UHGV virus genome: UHGV-1357462
Source: a virus
Reading direction: 5' to 3' (one strand)
DNA: 11,525 nucleotides
The position numbers and the translations under genes were made by a program. The notes beneath the pieces were generated by a model. That model did not search any database and was not told the DNA's origin. It worked only from the letters and a program-made list of their open reading frames with translations. Positions 1 to 10,894 of this stretch are shown here, one piece after another. Each line of letters opens with the position of its first letter. The stretch's first letter is position 1.

Positions 1-786
1 CTGATTGACTGTGCAGCCGAACCGACACAGTTTAACGGACGATCGCTGGTACAGATTGCGCAGGCGCTTGCTGCGCCTTTCGGCATTGAGGTGGTGAACA
101 ACAGTGCGCCGTCGGGTGTTATTCCTGATGTCCAGCCTGATCACGGCGAAACGGTGATTGAGGTGATCAACAAAATACTCGGTCAGCAGCAGGCACTGGC
201 TTACGACGACCCGCACGGCAGGCTGGTGATTGGCGGTATTGGCTCAACGCGGGCACATACCGCGCTGGTACTTGGGGAAAACATCCTTTCCTGTGATACG
301 GAGAAGAGTATCCGGGAGCGGTTTTCAGTTTACCAGGTGGCGGGGCAGCGTGCCGGAAACGACGATGATTTCGGTGAGGCCACCACCACCGCGCTGCGGG
401 CCCGCACAGAGGACGCATTTATTGCCCGTTACCGTCCGATGTATATCAGGCAGACAGGGCAGGCCACGGGGGCAGGCTGTATTGCCCGTGCGGACTTTGA
501 AGCCCGACAACGGGCGGCGCGGACGGATGAAACCACCTATGTGGTGCAGGGATGGCGACAGGGTAACGGTACGCTGTGGCAGCCCAACCAGCGGGTGATT
601 GTCTTCGATCCGGTCTGTGGTTTCGACAATACCGAACTGCTTGTCTCGGAAGTCACGTTTACTCAGGACCAGAACGGCACCCTGACGGAAATCCGTGTCG
701 GCCCACCTGATGCTTATCTGCCTGAACCCGAAGCCCCCGGCGCGCGGAAAAAGAAAAAAGCCAGAGTACAGGAGGACCCGTTCTGA
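1..786 (+). CDS. Phage baseplate hub protein, Mu gp44 (P)-like; 5'-partial
   Basis: Frame 1 has no stop from nt 1 (LIDCAAEPTQFNGRSLVQIAQALAAPFGIE precedes the tracked GTG at 91), so the gene enters from upstream. Its stop overlaps the next start (TGATG, 784-788). It is the first gene of a V / gp46 / J / gp48-like series, matching Mu 44-45-46-47-48 order. The assignment rests on synteny and remembered family appearance, not on alignment. Confidence 0.7.
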   Translation: MIDCAAEPTQFNGRSLVQIAQALAAPFGIEVVNNSAPSGVIPDVQPDHGETVIEVINKILGQQQALAYDDPHGRLVIGGIGSTRAHTALVLGENILSCDTEKSIRERFSVYQVAGQRAGNDDDFGEATTTALRARTEDAFIARYRPMYIRQTGQATGAGCIARADFEARQRAARTDETTYVVQGWRQGNGTLWQPNQRVIVFDPVCGFDNTELLVSEVTFTQDQNGTLTEIRVGPPDAYLPEPEAPGARKKKKARVQEDPF

Positions 787-1334
787 TGAGGACGATTGAA
801 GCCATGCAGCGACAACTCCTCGGCCTGATTGGGCGGGCTGTGGTGAAAAGCATCAGTGCCGCCACGAAATGTCAGACCGTGGATGTGTCCCTGATTGCCG
901 GTGAACCCAAAGCCGGGGTTGAACATCTTGAACCCTACGGTTTTACCGCAAGGGCAAACAGCGGTGCGGAAGCGGTGGTGTTGTTTCCGGATGGCGACCG
1001 TTCTCATGCGGTGGTTGTTACGGTGTCGGACCGGCGCTACCGCCTGAAAGGGCTGCAGACGGGTGAGGTGGCTGTCTATGACGATCAGGGGCAGTCCGTG
1101 ACGCTGACCCGGGAGGGGATCGTGGTGGACGGTGCAGGTAAGACGATCACGTTTCGCAATGCGCCCAGAGCACGTTTTGAAATGGACCTGGAAGTGACCG
1201 GACAGGTGAAAGACCTGTGCGACTCCGGCGGCACCACCATGTCAGCGATGCGGCTTGCCTATAACGGGCATCGTCACAGAGAGAACGGTCAGGGCAGTAA
1301 CACCGATAAACCTGATAAAGCGATGGAGGCATGA
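786..1334 (+). CDS. Baseplate spike / assembly protein V (Mu gp45, P2 gpV-like)
   Basis: 182-aa ORF, translationally coupled on both sides (TGATG upstream, ATGA downstream). The central segment GEVAVYDDQGQSVTLTREGIVVDGAGKTITF...LEVTGQV looks like the gpV spike fold. Its position between the hub and the gp46-like gene fits. Confidence 0.8.
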   Translation: MRTIEAMQRQLLGLIGRAVVKSISAATKCQTVDVSLIAGEPKAGVEHLEPYGFTARANSGAEAVVLFPDGDRSHAVVVTVSDRRYRLKGLQTGEVAVYDDQGQSVTLTREGIVVDGAGKTITFRNAPRARFEMDLEVTGQVKDLCDSGGTTMSAMRLAYNGHRHRENGQGSNTDKPDKAMEA

Positions 1335-1759
1335 TGGAACTGTGGCTGACGGTGAACGGTAAACGCACCTGCGCCAGCTCACCGCTGGATCCGCTGACCC
1401 GCGCCGTGGTGATTTCCCTGTTCACCTGGCGGCGGGCGGAGCCTGATGACAATGCCGACGTCCCGATGGGATGGTGGGGGGATACCTGGCCTGCGGTACA
1501 GAATGACCGTTACGGCTCCCGACTGTGGCTGCTTCAGCGCAGCAAACTGACCAATCAGCTGGTGCAGACGGTAAGGGGGTATATCCGCGAATGCCTGCAA
1601 TGGATGATTGATGACGGCGTGGTGTCCCGTATTGATCTGGATATCCGCCGCACCGGGATTAATGAGCTGGGTAACAGTATCACCCTCTGGCGTCGTGACG
1701 GACCGGTAATGATTTCTTTTGATGATCTGTGGAGTGCGATAACGCATGGCGGACAGTGA
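1331..1759 (+). CDS. Mu gp46-family baseplate protein
   Basis: 142-aa ORF with an ATGA overlap to the V gene. The segment WGDTWP...YGSRLWLLQRSKL resembles the GP46 family as I remember it. It sits directly upstream of the J-like gene, as in Mu. Confidence 0.75.
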   Translation: MMELWLTVNGKRTCASSPLDPLTRAVVISLFTWRRAEPDDNADVPMGWWGDTWPAVQNDRYGSRLWLLQRSKLTNQLVQTVRGYIRECLQWMIDDGVVSRIDLDIRRTGINELGNSITLWRRDGPVMISFDDLWSAITHGGQ

Positions 1760-2804
1760 ATTTCAGCGCCCGACGCTGGCAGAAAATATCAGTATGCTCC
1801 GTAACGATTTATTCGCCAGGCTGGACGTCAGCGACACGCTCCGGCGCATGGATGAAGACGTGCGGGCAAAGGTGTATGCGGCGGCGCTGCATACGGTTTA
1901 CGGGTACATCGATTATCTGGCAATGAACATGCTGCCTGACCTGTGCGATGAGTCCTGGCTGGCGCGACATGCTGCGATGAAACGGTGTCCGCGCAAGGGG
2001 GCCACGGCTGCCAGCGGGTATATGCGCTGGGAAGGTGTCAGCGATGGCCTGAAGGTGACTGCCGGGAGTGTTATTCAGCGCGATGACCTGGTTCAGTACA
2101 CGGCAACTGCCGATGCAACCAGCTCCGGTGGTGTCCTGCGCGTGCCGATCGCCTGCTCAAGTGCAGGCGCGGTCGGTAACGCTGACGACGGTACGTCATT
2201 AATCCTGGTCACGCCGGTTAATGGTCTGCCGTCTTCCGGCGTGGCAGATACCCTGACAGGTGGATTTGATACTGAAGAGCTGGAAACGTGGCGCGCCCGC
2301 GTCATTGAGCGATATTACTGGACGCCTCAGGGCGGGGCTGACGGGGACTATGTCGTCTGGGCTAAAGAAGTGCCCGGCATTACCCGCGCATGGACATACC
2401 GTCACTGGATGGGAACGGGAACTGTCGGTGTGATGATTGCCAGCAGTGACCTGATTAATCCCATTCCGGAAGAATCAACGGAAACGGCGGCAAGACAACA
2501 CATTGAGCCACTGGCCCCGGTGGCAGGCTCTGATTTGTATGTATTCAGGCCGGTGGCACATACGGTGGATTTTCATATCCGCGTGACGCCGGACACACCA
2601 GAAATACGGGCTGCCATTACCGCGGAGTTGCGTTCGTTCCTGCTGCGTGATGGTTATCCGCAGGGAGAACTGAAGGTATCGCGTATCAGTGAGGCGATTT
2701 CCGGTGCGAACGGGGAATACAGCCATCAGTTGCTTGCACCGGTGGACAATATCTCCATTGCGAAAAATGAGCTGGCGGTTCTGGGGACGATTTCATGGAC
2801 GTGA
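1746..2804 (+). CDS. Baseplate J-like protein (Mu gp47 / P2 gpJ / e14 JayE family)
   Basis: 352-aa ORF that overlaps its neighbours by 14 and 10 nt. Size and position match Baseplate_J family wedge proteins, and the composition is GC-rich like the rest of the operon. Confidence 0.85.
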
Positions 2805-3379
2805 CAAACGATGATTACATCCGCCTGTTATCGGCACTGTTGCCGCCCGGTCCTGCATGGTCAGCCAGCGATCCGGCGATTGCCGGTGCGGCACCTTCAT
2901 TAACCCGCGTTCATCAGCGTGCGGATGCTCTGATGCGGGAGCTTGATCCGCGCACCACCACCGAGCTGATAAATCGCTGGGAGCGTCTGTGTGGCCTGCC
3001 GGATGAATGTATTCCCGCAGGGACACAGACCCTTCGCCAGCGTCAGCAACGGCTGGATGCGAAGGTTAACCTGGCGGGTGGCATCAACGAGGATTTTTAT
3101 CTTGCACAGCTTGCTGCCCTGGGCAGACCAGATGCCACCATCACGCGATACGACAAAAGCACGTTCACCTGCTCATCGGCCTGTACTGACGCTGTGAATG
3201 CGCCGGAATGGCGGTATTACTGGCAGGTCAACATGCCAGCCGCCACCAACACCACCTGGATGACATGTGGCGATCCCTGTGATTCCGCGCTGCGTATCTG
3301 GGGCGACACCGTTGTCGAGTGTGTGCTTAACAAACTCTGCCCGTCGCATACCTACGTAATTTTTAAATATCCGGAGTAA
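2795..3379 (+). CDS. YmfQ-like / DUF2313 tail protein (Mu gp48-like)
   Basis: 194-aa ORF. The N-terminal [16 protein letters not shown] is the signature start of YmfQ/Mu gp48-type proteins. It lies between the J-like gene and the tail fibre, as in e14 and Mu. Confidence 0.8.
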
Positions 3380-3382
3380 TCC

Positions 3383-4129
3383 ATGCATCGTATAGACACG
3401 AAAACCGCGCAGAAGGATAAGTTCGGCGCGGGTAAGAACGGTTTTACCCGTGGTAACCCCCAGACAGGCACGCCTGCCACCGATCTGGATGATGACTACT
3501 TTGACATGTTGCAGGAAGAACTCTGCAGCGTGGTGGAGGCATCCGGTGCCAGTCTGGAGAAGGCGCGGCACGACCAACTGCTTACCGCGCTTCGTGCGCT
3601 GCTGTTAAGCCGCAAGAATCCGTTTGGCGATATCAAATCGGATGGCACGGTGAAAACGGCTCTCGAAAACCTTGGTTTGGGAGAAGGTGCTCCAGCTATT
3701 GGCGTTCCGTTCTTCTGGCCGTCCGCTGCAATGCCAAATACTGTAATCGACAGCTGGTCCAGTATGGTGTTTTTGAAGTTCAACGGCGCGAAATTCTCTG
3801 CCACTGATTATCCTGTGCTGGCGAAAGTGTTTCCTTCGCTGGTATTACCTGAAGCCCGCGGTGATTTCATTCGTATCTGGGATGACGGGCGAGGTGCAGA
3901 CGGTGGTCGCGAATTATTAAGCTGGCAGGAAGCTACAAACTTTTCTCAGTTTGCCGGGAATATAGGCGGAGGTGCGGGACACGCAATTAACTTTCATGAT
4001 GGCATCGCCGGAAATCAGCCAGGATTTTCACGATTTAATTTCACCAGTAACTCTGTGGGTGATGGTGTGAATTTTGTTGCTGTCAGACCGCGAAATATTG
4101 CATTTAACTTTCTGGTGAGGGCTAAATAA
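3383..4129 (+). CDS. Short tail fibre protein (constant N-terminus fused to the currently expressed variable C-terminus, Sc+Sv)
   Basis: 248-aa ORF. The N-terminus [46 protein letters not shown] is the conserved start of short fibres in Mu-tail-type prophages. Codons 93-101 (ALENLGLGE) coincide with the left inversion site. DNA becomes visibly AT-richer after that point. The stop overlaps the tfa start (TAATG). Confidence 0.85.
3660..3685. repeat. Left DNA-invertase crossover site (hix/gix/pix-like)
   Basis: ctctcgaaaaccTTggtttgggagaa. It matches the reverse complement of 5465-5490 at 21 of 26 positions, including a perfect 14-bp block (3672-3685 vs 5465-5478) and the same central TT dinucleotide. 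It has the AAACC-NN-GGTTT core typical of Hin/Gin/Cin/Pin sites. Confidence 0.8.
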
Positions 4130-4722
4130 TGAAACCTGTTTTTGATGAAAATGGGCTGGCTACAGTGCCGGGCGATATGCGTTGTTTTTATTATGATGCT
4201 GAAACATCTGAGTATACGGGCTGGTCTGATGAATATATTAATACTGGCGTAAGTATGCCCGCCTGTTCCACTGGTATTGACCCGGGCGAAAACATTCCGG
4301 GGAAAGTGGCAGTATTTACGGGTAAGGGATGGAGCCATGAAGAAGACCATCGCAATGAGACTGTTTACTCAACAGAAAATGGCGCAGCTGTTACAGTGGA
4401 TTATATCGGTGCCATCAAAGACGGTTATGTCACGCTTTCACCGTTAACGCCATACGATAAATGGGATGGTGAGAAATGGGTGACGGATACCGAGGCACAG
4501 CATAGCGCCGCAGTAGACGCGGCAGAAGCACAACGTCAGTCACTGATTGATACTGCAATGGCTTCCATTAGTCTGATTCAACTGAAATTGCAGGCCGGAC
4601 GGAAACTGACGCAGGCAGAAACAACCCGACTTAACGCCGTGCTGGATTACATTGACGCGGTGACGGTAACAGATACCAGCACCGCGCCGGATATCATCTG
4701 GCCTGAACTGCCGGAGGCGTAG
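4129..4722 (+). CDS. Tail fibre assembly protein (Tfa / gpU-like), expressed orientation
   Basis: 197-aa ORF coupled to the fibre gene. The C-terminus LNAVLDYIDAVTVTDTSTAPDIIWPELPEA is the hallmark tail-fibre-assembly chaperone C-terminus. Confidence 0.85.
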   Translation: MKPVFDENGLATVPGDMRCFYYDAETSEYTGWSDEYINTGVSMPACSTGIDPGENIPGKVAVFTGKGWSHEEDHRNETVYSTENGAAVTVDYIGAIKDGYVTLSPLTPYDKWDGEKWVTDTEAQHSAAVDAAEAQRQSLIDTAMASISLIQLKLQAGRKLTQAETTRLNAVLDYIDAVTVTDTSTAPDIIWPELPEA

Positions 4723-5113
4723 GCCATTCAATATCTGGCGCACTGGAAGTATCGACCAGCTCCAGTGCGTCCAGATAATCCAGCCACAAATTATATTGCG
4801 CCAGTTCCTCACCTTTCAGACGACCAATAGCCGCTTTACCAGGCCATTGCCTGCTGTTCATGTGCTCGTTGGCTTCATTAATAAGTTTTCCTTTTTTCAA
4901 CTCTGCCAATGCAATAAGGTTTTCTTTTGATAAAGGTGGTTGCTCTGTCAAAACCGGATATCCCTCCTGATTGCTGACTATTTTCATGCCATTATCCTGA
5001 CCATCCAGTAGTGACAGCCATTCATCCGTGGTTATCTCAACAGCATCTGAAGGTGCTTTATTTAAATCGGTAAAAAAACCATTTTCTTTTTGTGAATAGA
5101 AGTATCTGTCCAT
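4694..5113 (-). CDS. Alternative tail fibre assembly protein (Tfa' / gpU'-like), silent orientation
   Basis: 139-aa ORF. The N-terminus is MDRYFYSQKENGFF and the C-terminus is LWLDYLDALELVDTSSAPDIEWPTPP, the same family hallmark. It is convergent with the other tfa and overlaps it by 29 nt. It lies directly downstream of the Sv' cassette. Confidence 0.8.
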   Translation of the reverse strand: MDRYFYSQKENGFFTDLNKAPSDAVEITTDEWLSLLDGQDNGMKIVSNQEGYPVLTEQPPLSKENLIALAELKKGKLINEANEHMNSRQWPGKAAIGRLKGEELAQYNLWLDYLDALELVDTSSAPDIEWPTPPAVQAR

Positions 5114-5116
5114 TTA

Positions 5117-5464
5117 TCAATCTCCAAAAGCAATCCAGTAAGCAAAAGGATTTATTCCTTGCTCAGTCACAGATGACATCAGGGAAAATTGCGATGGTGA
5201 AACAGGTAATGCTGCAAAACTAACCATTGTTGACACACCTGACCGTGCATTATCGTACGATGCAACAACACAATAATTGGTATTGCTGAAAGATATCGGC
5301 AGGGTGATATTTACAGGTGAGCCTAATGGCCCTGATGCTGATATTCCCATTTGAATGATGGTTCCATCAGGCAATTTTCTCCAGCGATTAGAACTCGGAT
5401 TTCTTTTCCAGGCTGACATATCCGGTATCTGATTTTCTCCTGTGCCTACATCCCTTTTCGCCGC
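5117..5464 (-). CDS. Promoter-less alternative tail-fibre C-terminal cassette (Sv')
   Basis: The minus-strand frame is open through the right crossover site. The peptide ...NVGLGEAAKRDVGTGENQIPDMSAW... shares GLGE with the fibre at the left site. Inversion would therefore fuse fibre codons 1-101 to this cassette. The tracked Met at 5518 has no usable SD. Confidence 0.7.
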   Translation of the reverse strand, partial: AAKRDVGTGENQIPDMSAWKRNPSSNRWRKLPDGTIIQMGISASGPLGSPVNITLPISFSNTNYCVVASYDNARSGVSTMVSFAALPVSPSQFSLMSSVTEQGINPFAYWIAFGD

Positions 5465-5490
5465 TTCTCCCAAACCAACGTTTATGAAAA
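5465..5490. repeat. Right DNA-invertase crossover site (hix/gix/pix-like)
   Basis: ttctcccaaaccAAcgtttatgaaaa. It is the inverted partner of 3660-3685, lies 55 bp upstream of the invertase ATG, and resembles remembered hixL/gix sequences. Confidence 0.8.
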
Positions 5491-5544
5491 TGCAGAAATA
5501 ACGAGCAAATGGCATCATTCCTGCTTTTGTCAGGGAGATCTACC

Positions 5545-5901
5545 ATGCTTATTGGCTATGTACGTGTGTCAACAAATGACCAGAACACAGATCTACAGCG
5601 TAATGCGCTGAACTGTGCAGGATGCGAGCTGATTTTTGAAGACAAGATAAGCGGTACAAAGTCTGAAAGGCCGGGACTGAAAAAACTGCTCAGGACATTA
5701 TCGGAAGGTGACACTCTGGTTGTCTGGAAGCTGGATCGGCTGGGGCGTAGTATGCGGCATCTGGTCATTCTGGTTGAGGAGTTGCGCGAACGTGGCGTTA
5801 ATTTTCGCAGCCTAACGGATGCTATTGATATCAGCACGTCGATGGGGCGTTTTTTCTTTTATGTGATGGGGGCCTTGGCTGAAATTGAGTTTCAGGATTA
5901 A
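5545..5901 (+). pseudogene. pin: Serine DNA invertase, Gin/Pin/Cin/Hin family; 3'-truncated (catalytic domain only)
   Basis: MLIGYVRVSTNDQNTDLQRNAL...VVWKLDRLGRSM...GRFFFYVMGALAEIE is near-identical in pattern to Gin/Pin, with the catalytic Ser in YVRVSTNDQ. An SD (AGGGAG) lies 7 nt before ATG 5545. Family similarity stops at about nt 5889, followed by FQD-stop. Full-length family members are about 180-195 aa and carry a C-terminal HTH. No other frame continues the homology. Confidence 0.85.
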
Positions 5902-6062
5902 GCGATATCGTACTCACCCTTGGTCCCACCTAATAAATCTGAAGAACGGAAGCGCTGCCAGATGATGGTGGTGGCTACAATTATTCACACTCAATCTTCG
6001 GAGCAATCACGTACATCATAATGATGTTAGGAATACGGAGTTTAATGACTGTCCAGTGATGT

Positions 6063-6091
6063 AAAAAGAAACCCCGGCGTAGTAGCCGAGG
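6063..6091 (-). terminator. Rho-independent terminator of the protease gene
   Basis: On the minus strand the sequence reads CCTCGGC-TACTAC-GCCGGGG, a 7-bp stem with one G-U pair, followed by TTTCTTTTT. It lies 24 nt after the stop codon. Confidence 0.7.
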
Positions 6092-6114
6092 TCCTCAATC
6101 AGAAACTACAATAT

Positions 6115-7119
6115 TCACTGAGTGCCTTCATCTGGTTGCTCTGCTGGTAAGGTTCCAGCCTCTTCTTCAGTTTCCGCATGTTTTCCATCGCCTCCCTGGA
6201 CAGGTTCATCCCTTGGCGGTTCTGCTCTTCCTGAATTTTGGTCAGAGATTTCATCTCCTTCCTGAATTCTGCTGTTGTCATGGGAATCTTCCTCTGCGTT
6301 AGTTGTTTCATATTGTTTTTTAGGAGTTAAATCTTTAATCATCGGTTTGTCGAAGATAGAGATTTCGCCTGACGAAATCATTTCACCAAGAACTTCGTAC
6401 AGGTTGGCTGCAAAATCTGTAGGACTCTCAACATGGTTGAATAGTTCCCTCGCCTCTTTACGGTCTATCACAAAACCATGGGCTGGATATCCAGCGATCA
6501 ACTTGCCTAATGAGCTTTCCTTAAGATTTTTCGAGTGACTATTCAAACGTTCCCCATAGGAAAGCGCTATGTTCATTGCTCGCTGATGCTCCCCGAGTTT
6601 GATAGGGTCTATCTGTGAGGCCATCGGCGATATGATTGCTTCAGTAAGCTTAGCAGCAATATCTGCAGACATCTTTGTGCTAATTTGGTTTCTGTACTTT
6701 ATATCAAGTACGTATGATCTAAAGGTCGAAATAGCGCACTCTTTTATTTCATCAATCGCCGTTGCGATAACAAGGCCCGAGCTCAATTCGCCGATCTCAT
6801 CATTTTTCTTAAGTTGGATATCTAGAGGGCCAAGCTCACCCATATCACCAATCACGAGCTTATGAGCGGCGACAGCCATCAATGTTCCAGCACTTTTGCA
6901 AGGGCCAACAACTAGAACGGTGATGTGCTCATAGTTGTGTTGCAAAGCGCGGCCAATTCTATATCCTGCGCTGGGATCACCGCCATAGGTAGCGACGCAA
7001 AAAAGAACATTTTTTTGTAAACCATGGTTAGTTTTTCTTTCTTTAATCGCTTTGGTGATGTCGTGATGACCAGAGCGGTGAACATCGCCTATGTATACGT
7101 AAACGTCTGTATCTTGCAT
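6115..7119 (-). CDS. ClpP/SppA-fold serine protease (SDH-family Clp-fold proteinase-like) with an acidic low-complexity C-terminal tail
   Basis: 334-aa ORF with an SD (AGGGA) 5 nt before the ATG. The core FCVATYGGDPSAGYRIGRAL...ITVLVVGPCKSAGTLMAVAAHKLVIGDMGELGPLDIQL fits the remembered pattern T-x-GG...S-A-G-T...LGP-x-D-x-Q of S49/SDH Clp-fold peptidases. The last ~70 aa are rich in Glu, Asp, Gly, Pro and Gln. The family call comes from motif memory, not from a search. Confidence 0.65.
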   Translation of the reverse strand: MQDTDVYVYIGDVHRSGHHDITKAIKERKTNHGLQKNVLFCVATYGGDPSAGYRIGRALQHNYEHITVLVVGPCKSAGTLMAVAAHKLVIGDMGELGPLDIQLKKNDEIGELSSGLVIATAIDEIKECAISTFRSYVLDIKYRNQISTKMSADIAAKLTEAIISPMASQIDPIKLGEHQRAMNIALSYGERLNSHSKNLKESSLGKLIAGYPAHGFVIDRKEARELFNHVESPTDFAANLYEVLGEMISSGEISIFDKPMIKDLTPKKQYETTNAEEDSHDNSRIQEGDEISDQNSGRAEPPRDEPVQGGDGKHAETEEEAGTLPAEQPDEGTQ

Positions 7120-7320
7120 TTTAATCCCTATGAATAAAATGGTTGAATTTAATGCTGTTCCTCAGCCAAAGCACTGTATCGATAACCAAAATACCTCAGA
7201 TTTGTCGAGAAAACTATCTGGAAAATTAGGCTAACTCTTTGAATCTTCGGAATGCAAAAAAGATAATTTCTCTGGATGGGCGCTAAGTTGATGTGTAAGT
7301 ATGACGGTTAGAACGGTCTC

Positions 7321-7359
7321 GGAAACCGCAGGCACGTCGTATGCAAGAACGTGCTGCGG
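7321..7359 (-). terminator. Weak or leaky hairpin terminator after the dinI-like gene
   Basis: On the minus strand the sequence reads CCGCAGCACGT-(11-nt loop)-ACGTGCCTGCGG, an 11-bp GC-rich stem with one bulge. Only TTTCC follows it, so the U-tract is poor. Confidence 0.35.
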
Positions 7360-7427
7360 CTGGCTGGCGAACTTTCGATAGTGCGAGTATTGAATGATTT
7401 CCAGCCGTTACCGATTTTACGTGTTAA

Positions 7428-7676
7428 TTAGTGAACAAACCACTCGTCAGCAGATTCCCAGGTATCTTTCAGAGTCTCCTGAACAAAAGTTTTTGCAGAA
7501 TCCTTATCTGCGGTGCGTGTAACAGAAAGGCCATCGTTGCTGGTGGCTTTTACGATCACCTCTACATCGTCATAACGTTTACTGATGCGTCGGGTTAATT
7601 CTTCCTTTAACGCATCCACAGCACCGGTTGGCATTTTAGTCATTTTTTCTTTGGCTATGCAGATTTCAATACGCAT
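7428..7676 (-). CDS. dinI: DinI-family protein (DNA-damage-inducible, RecA modulator-like)
   Basis: The 82-aa product [40 protein letters not shown]...[16 protein letters not shown] parallels E. coli DinI (MRIEVTIAK...GAIDAL..EL.RRI...ETWESADDWFV). It has an SD (AGAGGGA) and a LexA-controlled promoter upstream. Confidence 0.9.
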
Positions 7677-7689
7677 AAAAGTCCCTCTA

Positions 7690-7709
7690 CACTGTGTTTG
7701 TATACAGTA
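7690..7709 (-). promoter_or_regulatory. LexA box 1 (SOS operator), between the -10 element and the SD of the dinI-like gene
   Basis: The minus strand reads TACTGTATACAAACACAGTG. This is CTGT-N8-ACAG (7692-7707), close to the consensus TACTGTATATATATACAGTA. Confidence 0.85.
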
Positions 7710-7712
7710 TTA

Positions 7713-7741
7713 TTTTTAACTGTATGAATAAACAGTGTCAA
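7713..7741 (-). promoter_or_regulatory. Sigma-70 promoter of the dinI-like gene
   Basis: On the minus strand there is TTGACA (7741-7736), a 17-nt spacer, then TAAAAA (7718-7713). The spacer is occupied by LexA box 2. Confidence 0.7.
7718..7737 (-). promoter_or_regulatory. LexA box 2 (SOS operator), filling the -35/-10 spacer
   Basis: The plus strand reads aaCTGTatgaataaACAGtg, which is CTGT-N8-ACAG at 7720-7735. Its centre is 28 bp from box 1. Confidence 0.85.
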
Positions 7742-7760
7742 TAGAACAAAGATTGCTGCA

Positions 7761-8178
7761 TGTACAAATGTTCTTTGGCTACAAATACACCTACTGATCA
7801 TGTTCTGCTATGCTCTGATACCTCCAAAATGTACAATCAGCGGCATGAATTTTTCTTTGTACATATGATTGTACATAATTAAAGAGACAACAATTATGAC
7901 AAGCCTTTTGGCCGCAGAGGTAGCGAAAAGAAGAACCTTTGCAATTATTTCTCACCCCAATAATTAAGTCCAAATTAAAGCTCTTTTACTCTTTCAAAAT
8001 CCTTTCAGTTAATTGAAGTTGAGCTATATAACTCATTTAAATACATTTGTTTATGTAGCTTCTTTAATTGAAAACTCTTTCATGTAACTTTAAATCGATC
8101 AGCTTGCTTTCATCAAAAACCTGTACATATGCTTGTACATAATGTACAAAACAGCAGAGGTGTTTTGCGATTTGTACA
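7761..8178. repeat. Two clusters of TGTACA(W)A repeats flanking the prfC-like core; candidate attP arm-type recombinase or RDF binding sites
   Basis: There are eight TGTACA hexamers, at 7761, 7830, 7858, 7870 | 8122, 8134, 8143, 8173, and I found none elsewhere in the window. A 22-bp direct repeat, tgtacatatgAttgtacataat (7858-7879) vs tgtacatatgCttgtacataat (8122-8143), has one mismatch. Confidence 0.6.
7896..7967 (+). other. prfC: Surrogate 5' end of prfC (RF3), 23 codons, containing the probable att core
   Basis: It translates as [23 protein letters not shown]-stop. E. coli PrfC starts [28 protein letters not shown], so similarity runs through ...ISHP (to about nt 7958) and then breaks. 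The fragment lies 220 bp upstream of the integrase on the same strand. Confidence 0.75.
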
Positions 8179-8187
8179 AGGTGAGTA

Positions 8188-9411
8188 ATGGCGCTGTCTG
8201 ATGCGTGGTTGCGTTCAGTCGTTGGAAAGGAACGTGATAAGGTTTTGGTTAAATCCGATCGTGATGGTCTGTCTGTCAGAGTATCACCGAAAGGTCGCGT
8301 AGTGTTCCAATATCGTTATCAATGGGCAGGGAAAGGTGAGCGTCTTGATATCGGAACTTACCCGGCAACTGGATTAAAAGAGGCCAGAGAAGAAGTTATC
8401 CGTCTTCGTGGTGAACTCGAGTCAAACCGTAATCCACGATTGGTCAAGCAGGCTGAAAAACGAAAAGCTACTGAAGCCATGACGGTAGAGTCTGTGATCC
8501 GTGCTTGGTATGAAGCATATTGTGTAAAAAATAAAAAAGGTTCTGAACAGATACTTCGCTCGTTTGAGCTGCACCTGTTCTCTAAAATCGGGAATATCCC
8601 TCACGATGCAGCTACATTGCATGATTGGTTAGAAGTCCTGGAGCCTCTTAGCACTAAGACTCCAGCAATAGCAGACCGATTGCTAATTAACGCAAAGCAG
8701 GCCCATGTCTGGGCGTATAAGAGAAAGCTCATTGAAACTCGCCCGCTGTCGGATATCACGGGTAAAGATATGGATATCCGTAAAGGTCAGAAGAAACGGT
8801 TTCTGACACATGATGAAATTAAAATCCTTTATGCTGCGATCGATGGTTCTCGAATGGTTCCTAAATACCGGGCCTTCATTAAACTATTGCTGCATTTTGG
8901 TTGCCGTAGTTCAGAGCTAATTACCGCCCGGGTGGACGATTTTGATTTCATTAATAAAGTATGGACTGTACCACCAGAACGACATAAGACAGGGGAGATA
9001 ACAGGCGAACCGCTAAAGCGGCCCATTATTGAACCGGTTGAAGAGCTTATAAAGTACGCTATCTCTATGAACAATGGTTCCGATATGCTTTTTACTAAGG
9101 AAGGAAGCAGGGAACCCGTTGGTCGGACATCATTGCAGTCGCTGCCTTACAATTTAATGCAGTACGCATGGCGGTGTTTAGGATATCAATTCCCTCATTG
9201 GTCTCTTCATGACTTGAGACGTACAGCTCGAACAAATTTTTCTGATCTTACTGCGCCTCATATCGCAGAAATTATGCTTGGTCATAAGCTGCCAGGGGTA
9301 TGGCAAGTTTATGATAAGAGCGATTATCTAGAAGAACAGCGTAAAGCTTACCTGGCATGGTGGAAGAGGGTTGAATCGATTGTTAATTGTACTATCTCTG
9401 ATTCAAACTGA
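8188..9411 (+). CDS. int: Tyrosine integrase, P4/SXT-like (DUF4102 N-terminal arm-binding domain plus catalytic domain)
   Basis: 407-aa ORF. The N-terminus LSDAWLRSV...DGLSVRVSPKGRVVFQYRYQWAGKGERLDIGTYPATGLKEAREE is the DUF4102 pattern. Catalytic signatures are present: FGCRSSEL (Arg), WSLHDLRRTART (H-x-x-R) and MLGHK...WQVYDKS (His...Tyr). Confidence 0.9.
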   Translation: MALSDAWLRSVVGKERDKVLVKSDRDGLSVRVSPKGRVVFQYRYQWAGKGERLDIGTYPATGLKEAREEVIRLRGELESNRNPRLVKQAEKRKATEAMTVESVIRAWYEAYCVKNKKGSEQILRSFELHLFSKIGNIPHDAATLHDWLEVLEPLSTKTPAIADRLLINAKQAHVWAYKRKLIETRPLSDITGKDMDIRKGQKKRFLTHDEIKILYAAIDGSRMVPKYRAFIKLLLHFGCRSSELITARVDDFDFINKVWTVPPERHKTGEITGEPLKRPIIEPVEELIKYAISMNNGSDMLFTKEGSREPVGRTSLQSLPYNLMQYAWRCLGYQFPHWSLHDLRRTARTNFSDLTAPHIAEIMLGHKLPGVWQVYDKSDYLEEQRKAYLAWWKRVESIVNCTISDSN

Positions 9412-9697
9412 CGGTTTGTATCACCTGAACATAACCAAATCTCCTAGCACACTTTGAGCGAGATGTGAGCGTTAAGTTTACGCCATTGTGTTGACATAAG
9501 AGGGGGGCGGGTATCGATATCATCACTATCCCTATGCCCCTAAATCGCTCCTGCCATTTGATAAATGCAGATGTTTACCACCAAATGTTTTTGATACTAT
9601 AGGTCGATTCATGATTTACCTAGAAACTTAGTTGTAACGAAAACTTCTTAACGGACACTATCTGGATAAAGTTAGTTTTTTATTTAAGAGGGTTAAC

Positions 9698-10417
9698 ATG
9701 TCAAAGTTAAAAAATGAACCATTAGTAAGGGTATCAGAAGAAGACGGAATAGAAATAAGGAAGATCCAATATCCAGATAATACGATAGAAAGAATTTATA
9801 AGCAGAAAGGTGTAATATTACCACGAATACCTTTAAAAGGCCGCTTTGTAGAACAATATGTGGCCTTACAGTTGCTTGATAAAGATCTTCGGAATGTTAT
9901 TGGTTGGGAGAATATAATAAAAAACATTTGTAATAACATTAATAAAGAACAACACTTTATTTATCCGGATTTAGAAAAGAATCTAATATTAAAGTCTTTA
10001 TTTATATCAAAAGTTGTTACTTACGGTAAGTGTTTTACAGAGGCGAAAGGGCGTCGATTCACATTGCAGAGAAAGCATGTGCCAGAAAAATACAGAGATT
10101 TACATGATTCTATTATGAATGTTAGACATAACTTTGCTGCCCATAAAGGTGAATTCGAATATGATCAATGTGGCTTGGTTTTAATATTGCCGGGGACCAA
10201 GAAGAAAAGGTACTATCATATTTTTTCAGAGCTCAATCAAATAAATTACGGTAATAATGAGGAAGATGATGAACGTTTTTTTATGTTATATGATTCACTG
10301 CGTGAAGTCATTAAAGAAAAACAAGATAAATTAATTGATAAAATATACGCTGAAAAGATTCATACTCAAACAATGGAGTATTGGTTGAGCCGAGCAGGAA
10401 AAGAAACAGAGATTTAA
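9698..10417 (+). CDS. Orphan hypothetical protein, 239 aa, very AT-rich; possible HEPN-like (R-x5-H) abortive-infection or exclusion protein
   Basis: It is an isolated ORF with an SD (AAGAGGG, 9686-9692) and ~280-bp non-coding flanks. I recognise no family. The motif V-R143-H-N-F-A-A-H149 (nt 10124-10144) is present. The composition contrasts strongly with the phage backbone. Confidence 0.6.
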   Translation: MSKLKNEPLVRVSEEDGIEIRKIQYPDNTIERIYKQKGVILPRIPLKGRFVEQYVALQLLDKDLRNVIGWENIIKNICNNINKEQHFIYPDLEKNLILKSLFISKVVTYGKCFTEAKGRRFTLQRKHVPEKYRDLHDSIMNVRHNFAAHKGEFEYDQCGLVLILPGTKKKRYYHIFSELNQINYGNNEEDDERFFMLYDSLREVIKEKQDKLIDKIYAEKIHTQTMEYWLSRAGKETEI

Positions 10418-10699: not shown

Positions 10700-10894
10700 T
10701 TACTCAATCACTCCCGCAAATCTGTAAATCTTGTGTGATGCCCATTTATTTGGGCAGGATTTAATATCAGGATCTGGAAAGTCAGGCCTGTATTTCTGAC
10801 CAGTTCTCCTGTTTACGCTGTTCCAGCGAAGAACTGTCGATACTGAAACACCACAGAAATCGGCGACTTGTTTAGTTGTCATTAAGTTGTTCAT
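10700..10894 (-). CDS. xis: AlpA-family excisionase / recombination directionality factor (HTH)
   Basis: The 64-aa product has MTTKQVADFCGVSVSTVLRWNS...FPDPD...NKWASHKIYRF, which fits the AlpA/Xis winged-helix pattern (l..keva.l.gvS.sTv.rW....FP.P....rW). Its start overlaps the upstream stop (TAATG). This RDF type typically partners with P4-like integrases. Confidence 0.8.
   Translation of the reverse strand: MNNLMTTKQVADFCGVSVSTVLRWNSVNRRTGQKYRPDFPDPDIKSCPNKWASHKIYRFAGVIE

Follow-up and report, generated by a model that had tools for sequence, protein, structure and literature searches.

The window analysed here, an 11,525-nt stretch of phage DNA, contains a short open reading frame that resembles the start of prfC, the gene for release factor RF3, a short distance upstream of an integrase gene. 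Phage-type DNA lies on both sides of this reading frame, as the original prediction had stated: the left flank comprises Mu/SfV-type baseplate and tail-fibre genes, an SDH-family protease and DinI, and the right flank comprises int, a cargo ORF, xis and a DUF551 early gene. The features relevant to the argument are the following.

7428..7676, minus strand: phage dinI-like gene with LexA boxes (7692-7707 and 7720-7735) in its promoter region; a neighbour of the P arm, outside attP proper
7727..7943, no strand: P arm, with TTGTACAT at 7760-7767 (minus), 7829-7836 (minus), 7857-7864 (plus) and 7869-7876 (plus)
7896..7967, plus strand: replacement 5' end of prfC, whose codons 1-21 join the host prfC body in frame after integration; when unintegrated, the frame ends in NN-stop
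7943..7965, no strand: putative core-type Int sites, a perfect 7-bp inverted repeat AATTATT (7943-7949) / AATAATT (7959-7965) with the 9-bp spacer TCTCACCCC
7944..7957, no strand: common core ATTATTTCTCACCC, common to attP, attB, attL and attR; codons I-I-S-H-P, directly before the P-loop
7958..8187, no strand: P' arm, with repeats at 8121-8128 (CTGTACAT), 8133-8140 (plus), 8142-8149 (minus) and 8172-8179 (TTGTACAA)
8188..9411, plus strand: tyrosine integrase, 407 aa, with Arm-DNA-bind_3 (PF13356), Phage_int_M and Phage_integrase domains; P4-type arm-binding N-terminus
10700..10894, minus strand: excisionase (recombination directionality factor), phrog_1553, E = 4e-36; annotated as excisionase in cdtI and 2H10

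Between int and xis, the cargo ORF at 9698-10417 (plus strand) encodes 239 aa at a GC content of ~32%. Its sole match was phrog_8440, a family of unknown function; searches against Pfam, NCBIfam and PADLOC gave no match for it, and neither the SDH protease nor DinI had a match in PADLOC. The same slot is occupied by a 2.1-kb ORF in the phages cdtI and Ayreon, by an AIPR-family gene in the circular record p13P484A-1 and by an 816-nt ORF in a prophage of E. coli E19025, and is a variable hotspot, possibly for defence or moron genes. The stretch 5509-7119 looks like a second accessory-gene hotspot. It carries a truncated Hin-type invertase of 130 aa, which retains just the resolvase N-terminal domain, followed by the SDH-family protease, a Clp-fold serine protease of 334 aa on the minus strand, between the tail-fibre genes and dinI; at the equivalent position, p13P484A-1 carries TIR-domain and reverse-transcriptase genes. 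Beside the truncated invertase, an alternative tail-fibre C-terminus with assembly genes (4694-5518, minus strand) lies on the opposite strand to the tail-fibre genes at 3383-4722 (plus strand). This arrangement looks like an invertible host-range segment, which may now be locked.

In the dinI promoter region, the two CTGT-N8-ACAG boxes (7692-7707 and 7720-7735) make up an inverted repeat of 20 nt with an AT-rich centre (7689-7738). A strong promoter match on the minus strand, TTGACA-18-AAAAAT, contains LexA box 2 inside its spacer.

A phage-borne start of prfC

The mini-ORF begins with an ATG at 7896 and ends with a TAA at 7965-7967, and thus consists of 23 codons and a stop (ATG ACA AGC CTT TTG GCC GCA GAG GTA GCG AAA AGA AGA ACC TTT GCA ATT ATT TCT CAC CCC AAT AAT TAA). 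In comparison with RF3 of E. coli K-12, its codons 1-7 are divergent and the phage copy is shorter by one codon, and its codons 8-21 specify the same residues. Similarity to K-12 prfC stops at 7957/7958, after the CCC proline codon (7956-7958). Hence, the K-12 comparison bears out what had been proposed from the window itself, namely that a 23-codon ORF mimics the RF3 start, that its first seven codons are divergent and one residue shorter, and that the similarity ends at about 7958 after ISHP.

Between the divergent N-terminus and the core lie nine codons, six of which differ from E. coli prfC by a total of 8 nt, and all of these differences are synonymous. The ATG, the reading frame and an AAGAG Shine-Dalgarno-like motif 9-10 nt upstream are conserved in all six phages compared. 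Judging from these alignments, the resemblance of the mini-ORF to the start of prfC is not a matter of chance, because the differences are synonymous only and because 700 of 5,426 complete E. coli genomes have the same sequence joined to the prfC body (see below). The phage copy contains two consecutive rare AGA arginine codons at 7929-7934, where E. coli prfC has CGC CGC. The opposite strand has an ORF of 60 aa (7791-7973), which was regarded as a chance ORF.

The attachment site and its junctions in lysogens

Searching complete E. coli genomes with the window (megablast) identified a 40-kb prophage in the APEC strain E19025 (NZ_CP126931.1), which served as the reference for attL and attR. 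Positions 1-7957 of the window match the attR side of this prophage with 99.99% identity, and the match is broken exactly at 7957, where the prfC body continues. The attL side is matched by positions 7916-9411 with 95.5% identity. At the attL end, which adjoins yjjG, CAATAATTAA and the integrase gene come after the native promoter and initial 22 codons of prfC, such that the host start of prfC is fused to NN-stop with int behind it. At attR, the mini-ORF is in frame with the prfC body, and PGAP calls an RF3 of 528 aa versus 529 aa in K-12.

A four-way comparison of attP in the window, attB of K-12, and attL and attR of the E19025 prophage yielded a common core, ATTATTTCTCACCC, of 14 bp at 7944-7957. 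The crossover core had been predicted near 7940-7960, and the identity block shared with host prfC that was to be sought as a check is therefore present within that range. The identical 14 bp are annotated as 'duplication due to insertion' in the record of an Stx2c phage (LC727876). Strand exchange must, on this comparison, take place inside the core. The 7-bp inverted repeat that surrounds it provides putative core-type Int sites, and the overlap region presumably lies inside 7950-7957. In Ayreon, attP has a C instead of an A at the equivalent of 7943, directly left of the core (Ayreon 2712), which extends its identity with the K-12 attB to 20 bp. This C may be a footprint of an earlier cycle of integration and excision, and is a hint that strands are exchanged to the right of that base.

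The attR junction is common. Using a 260-nt probe of which at least 80% had to be covered, we found it in 700 of the 5,426 complete E. coli genomes (~13%), which have an annotated intact prfC, whereas the remaining genomes match the prfC half only. Both reciprocal junctions that the original prediction had asked for are therefore present: the phage arm with the mini-ORF and the prfC body at attR, and the host prfC 5' end with int at attL. The 14-bp core shared by four att sites and the in-frame fusion at attR identify the feature as the attP of a prfC-specific temperate phage.

The arms on either side of the core are rich in repeats. All eight copies of TGTACA in the 11.5-kb window fall within 7761-8178, and the six copies of the octamer TTGTACAT all lie in 7760-8149, where 0.41 copies would be expected. 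Moreover, a 23-bp block, TGTACATATGMTTGTACATAAT, is present on both arms, at 7858-7880 and again at 8122-8144. Among six prfC phages, the P arm hardly varies between ~7727 and the core. One of the six, Ayreon, has no dinI beside it, and homology with Ayreon and with ~45 genomes without dinI begins at ~7727. The TTGTACAT repeats are putative arm-type sites, as expected for an integrase with an arm-binding domain. The locus thus combines a shared core duplicated at attL and attR, repeats on both sides together with an arm-binding Int, and both int and xis, which is the organisation of a complex (lambda-type) attP.

An alternative explanation might be that the 23-codon ORF encodes a phage micro-protein, which has a role of its own in the excised state, for instance as a decoy of the RF3 N-terminus. 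In attP, the ORF indeed runs from ATG to TAA without interruption, and it is conserved in every copy of attP. Yet, its C-terminal NN-stop falls in the core-type repeat and the P' arm, and the host version at attL gains the same NN-stop tail as a by-product. Furthermore, the 23 residues cover one beta-strand before the P-loop, for which no independent fold is expected, and the attP function together with the replacement role fully explains the conservation. A separate micro-protein is therefore extremely unlikely, and we continue with the reading of the ORF as the phage half of prfC.

The junction in the window is one of phage DNA with phage DNA, which had been attributed to either a circular or virion form or to two elements in tandem at prfC. 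Of these two possibilities, the circular form has the stronger support. An uninterrupted attP containing the same mini-ORF can be read in the genome records of phages 2H10, cdtI and Ayreon. Among 20,395 E. coli records it occurs once, in the 33.7-kb circular record NZ_CP019281.1 (p13P484A-1). This record was deposited as a plasmid; its sequence is a phage genome with many frameshifted genes, and the record probably represents a prophage after excision, or the circular form as assembled, rather than a plasmid. No chromosome among the 5,426 E. coli genomes has an internal attP at the prfC site. In IMG/VR, the exact 46-nt attP junction had no match, and a degenerate 30-nt junction query retrieved 32 contigs with the site near the contig end in nearly all of them.

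If two prfC-specific elements were arranged in tandem, the tail end of one prophage would meet the int end of the next in a sequence identical to attP. Several observations are compatible with such an array. The closest relative is not the same for the two arms, given the 99.99% versus 95.5% identity to the E19025 prophage and the different cargo gene on the right arm. In addition, the literature discusses SXT elements arrayed in tandem and the possibility of tandem Stx phages at prfC (PMC5812530, PMC10132054), and a tandem array at prfC is present in a Rheinheimera MAG. The single E. coli record with an uninterrupted attP is, however, a circle and not a chromosome, the same junction occurs in deposited phage genomes, and module mosaicism is normal in these phages. 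Moreover, both arm types can be found in single prophages: in strain bR_120_Kylling (NZ_CP182374.1), the right arm of the window (99.8% identity) and the left arm lie ~41 kb apart in one prophage. We consider a tandem origin of the junction unlikely and favour an unintegrated attP.

The Rheinheimera contig (CAYTIQ010000001.1, 14782-23996 and 64188-73402) carries two homologous integrases 49 kb apart with an RF3 fragment before each. Host chemotaxis genes lie upstream of the first integrase, and a gene for a polyvalent ART/LPD38 protein lies upstream of the second. By its gene order, this pair represents two elements in tandem at prfC, and the junction between them resembles attP.

Integrase specificity and related elements

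The integrase gene starts 220 bp past the stop of the mini-ORF on the same strand, and its position and Pfam domains agree with the co-oriented P4-type integrase that had been predicted there. P4-type integrases usually target tRNA genes. A tRNA gene as integration target was rejected in this case, because there is no tRNA gene anywhere in the 11,525-nt window. Homologues of the integrase are numerous (>1,000 at E ≤ 1e-20), and the catalytic-type residues are invariant across the family alignment. We surveyed 80 loci of homologues with 43-98% identity, and in 36 of these an RF3 fragment that ends right after ISHP lies 125-235 bp upstream of int. These 36 loci include Enterobacterales, Pantoea, Xenorhabdus, Serratia, Pseudomonas, Acinetobacter, Methylobacter and Burkholderiaceae, and the pattern extends across Gamma- and Betaproteobacteria. 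In translational GTPases, a single beta-strand precedes the P-loop. The DNA target encodes this beta-strand and the start of the P-loop, which explains why attB is conserved.

Smyshlyaev et al. (2021; PMC8138268) placed the integrase of the cdtI phage and IntSXT in one prfC-associated cluster. The integrase of the window is 98% identical to that of cdtI, and would by this proxy belong with the prfC-targeting SXT cluster. Insertion at the 5' end of prfC, which characterises the cluster, is also found here, in attL and attR of E19025, in the 700 attR genomes and in the 36 of 80 loci. In terms of comparative sequence evidence, the integrase is specific for prfC.

The closest known systems are the phages cdtI (NC_009514), 2H10 and Ayreon and the Stx1a and Stx2c phages at prfC (e.g., LC727876), the last two of which are well documented (PMC10132054). 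They share with the window the attP, the mini-ORF, the 14-bp core, the arm repeats and the int-cargo-xis layout, and differ from it in neighbouring modules only. The window has an SfV/Mu-type contractile-tail module and an SDH-family protease gene, whereas these phages have a lambda-like tail or toxin genes; the cargo ORF between int and xis differs as well.

Similar strategies are used by other mobile elements. SXT also replaces the promoter and N-terminus of prfC, according to Hochhut and Waldor (1999) as cited in PMC8409611, and the SXT-related ICEApl2 has a 14-bp imperfect repeat in prfC (PMC5890775). The SXT/R391 elements are, however, conjugative elements of ~100 kb with a 52-gene backbone and integrases that are nearly identical among themselves, whereas the element in the window is a tailed phage. 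There are no conjugation genes in the window or in the matching 40-kb prophage, which instead contain tailed-phage structural genes, lysis genes and lambdoid early genes. A place within the SXT/R391 group of ICEs was therefore rejected on account of this tailed-phage backbone. The dusA-specific elements (e.g., IMEVchUSA3) follow the same replacement strategy with a different target gene and a different integrase.

Phage SKA5, which is closely related and shares its tail and dinI modules with the window, carries a different integrase beside a 5' fragment of dusA ('tRNA-dihydrouridine'; SKA5 8593-9901, corresponding to the window from ~7741 onward). A dusA-type int module occupies the genome position beside dinI where the window has a prfC-type module. 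The dinI module, which elsewhere lies beside other integrases, ends at ~7741-7745. At this boundary, just to the right of dinI, complete attP-int modules are exchanged for one another, and each brings its own replacement gene start.

Taken together, the feature is, with high confidence, the attP of a temperate E. coli phage in unintegrated (circular or virion) order that carries a replacement 5' end of prfC. Its gene content is that of a phage with an SfV/Mu-type tail module, a lambdoid early region and an int-xis module of the cdtI/2H10 type. In the proposed mechanism, the integrase (8188-9411), probably together with host bending proteins, would bind the core-type inverted repeat and, on either side of it, the TTGTACAT arm sites, and would exchange strands inside ATTATTTCTCACCC (7944-7957) with the identical sequence at host prfC codons 18-22. 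The cleavage positions and the repeats bound by Int are predicted from the sequence. At attL, the host promoter, RBS and first 22 codons end up on NN-stop in front of int; at attR, the phage RBS and 21 codons (7896-7958) are placed in frame with the prfC body. The Xis protein (10700-10894) would reverse the integration. As a consequence of the in-frame joining at attR, lysogens should retain a full-length RF3 (528 aa) whose N-terminal heptapeptide differs from the native one.

Such an attP is not new. The group of prfC-integrating phages to which this textbook-type site belongs has been described before, and the principle of a replaced gene start is established for SXT, dusA elements and Stx/Cdt phages.

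Expression of the hybrid prfC in lysogens

After integration, the P arm must hold the RBS of the hybrid prfC, and a promoter within it (at about 7727-7895) probably transcribes the gene, which would place RF3 expression under the control of the phage, as the original prediction had proposed. A consensus scan found no sigma-70 consensus promoter on the plus strand in the conserved P arm (7745-7895). The sole plus-strand candidate, at 7686-7713, was rejected; it is weak, overlaps LexA box 1, which lies in its spacer, and is not conserved, as the A of its -10 element is lost in 2H10 and Stx2c and the candidate is absent from Ayreon and ~45 genomes. According to Ogura et al. (2007; PMC2323221), the presence of an Stx1 phage in prfC changes the RF3 N-terminus and removes the native RBS and promoter; these authors left the expression of the hybrid gene open.

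Bobay et al. (2013; PMC3603311) counted prfC among the genes 'disrupted' by prophages. In line with that view, the mini-ORF might be a dead remnant of host prfC left by imprecise excision, with prfC inactivated in lysogens. The gene is non-essential (PMC2323221), and there is no clear promoter upstream of the mini-ORF. Our results point in another direction. A dead remnant would not be expected to differ from prfC by eight synonymous changes out of eight in the nine pre-core codons, nor to keep its start codon, AAGAG motif and frame in six phages. The in-frame fusion is annotated as full-length RF3 in 700 genomes, and the unrelated Rheinheimera element has an independent and different mimic with the same invariant 10-residue end. 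For SXT, moreover, the element is reported to supply both promoter and N-terminus (Hochhut and Waldor, 1999, as cited in PMC8409611). We therefore regard a dead remnant as very unlikely. The synonymous differences, the retained ATG, motif and frame, and the separate Rheinheimera mimic with the same end argue for selection on the encoded peptide, i.e., for translation of the hybrid prfC. This indicates, as far as genome comparisons can tell, that prfC is restored rather than 'disrupted' in lysogens. Accordingly, the 23-codon ORF is best annotated as the phage half of a split prfC, neither as an independent gene nor as a pseudogene.

Possibly, the phage does more than repair prfC, and rewires it such that the RF3 dosage in lysogens responds to SOS induction or to occupancy by Int and Xis. 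The hybrid prfC lies directly behind the Int arm sites and ~160-200 bp downstream of the symmetric dinI promoter region with its double LexA box; in 655 of the 5,426 genomes (~12%), the dinI-LexA region lies directly upstream of it. RF3 dosage could differ in lysogens because of this upstream LexA-box region, the Int arm sites, the new heptapeptide and the tandem rare AGA codons, the last of which could lower or modulate RF3 translation. Rewiring of this kind is a speculative option to which we assign a low probability. If true, termination fidelity and peptidyl-tRNA drop-off could change with RF3 dosage. Irrespective of its regulation, ~13% of the complete E. coli genomes would make their RF3 from a 5' end supplied by a phage.
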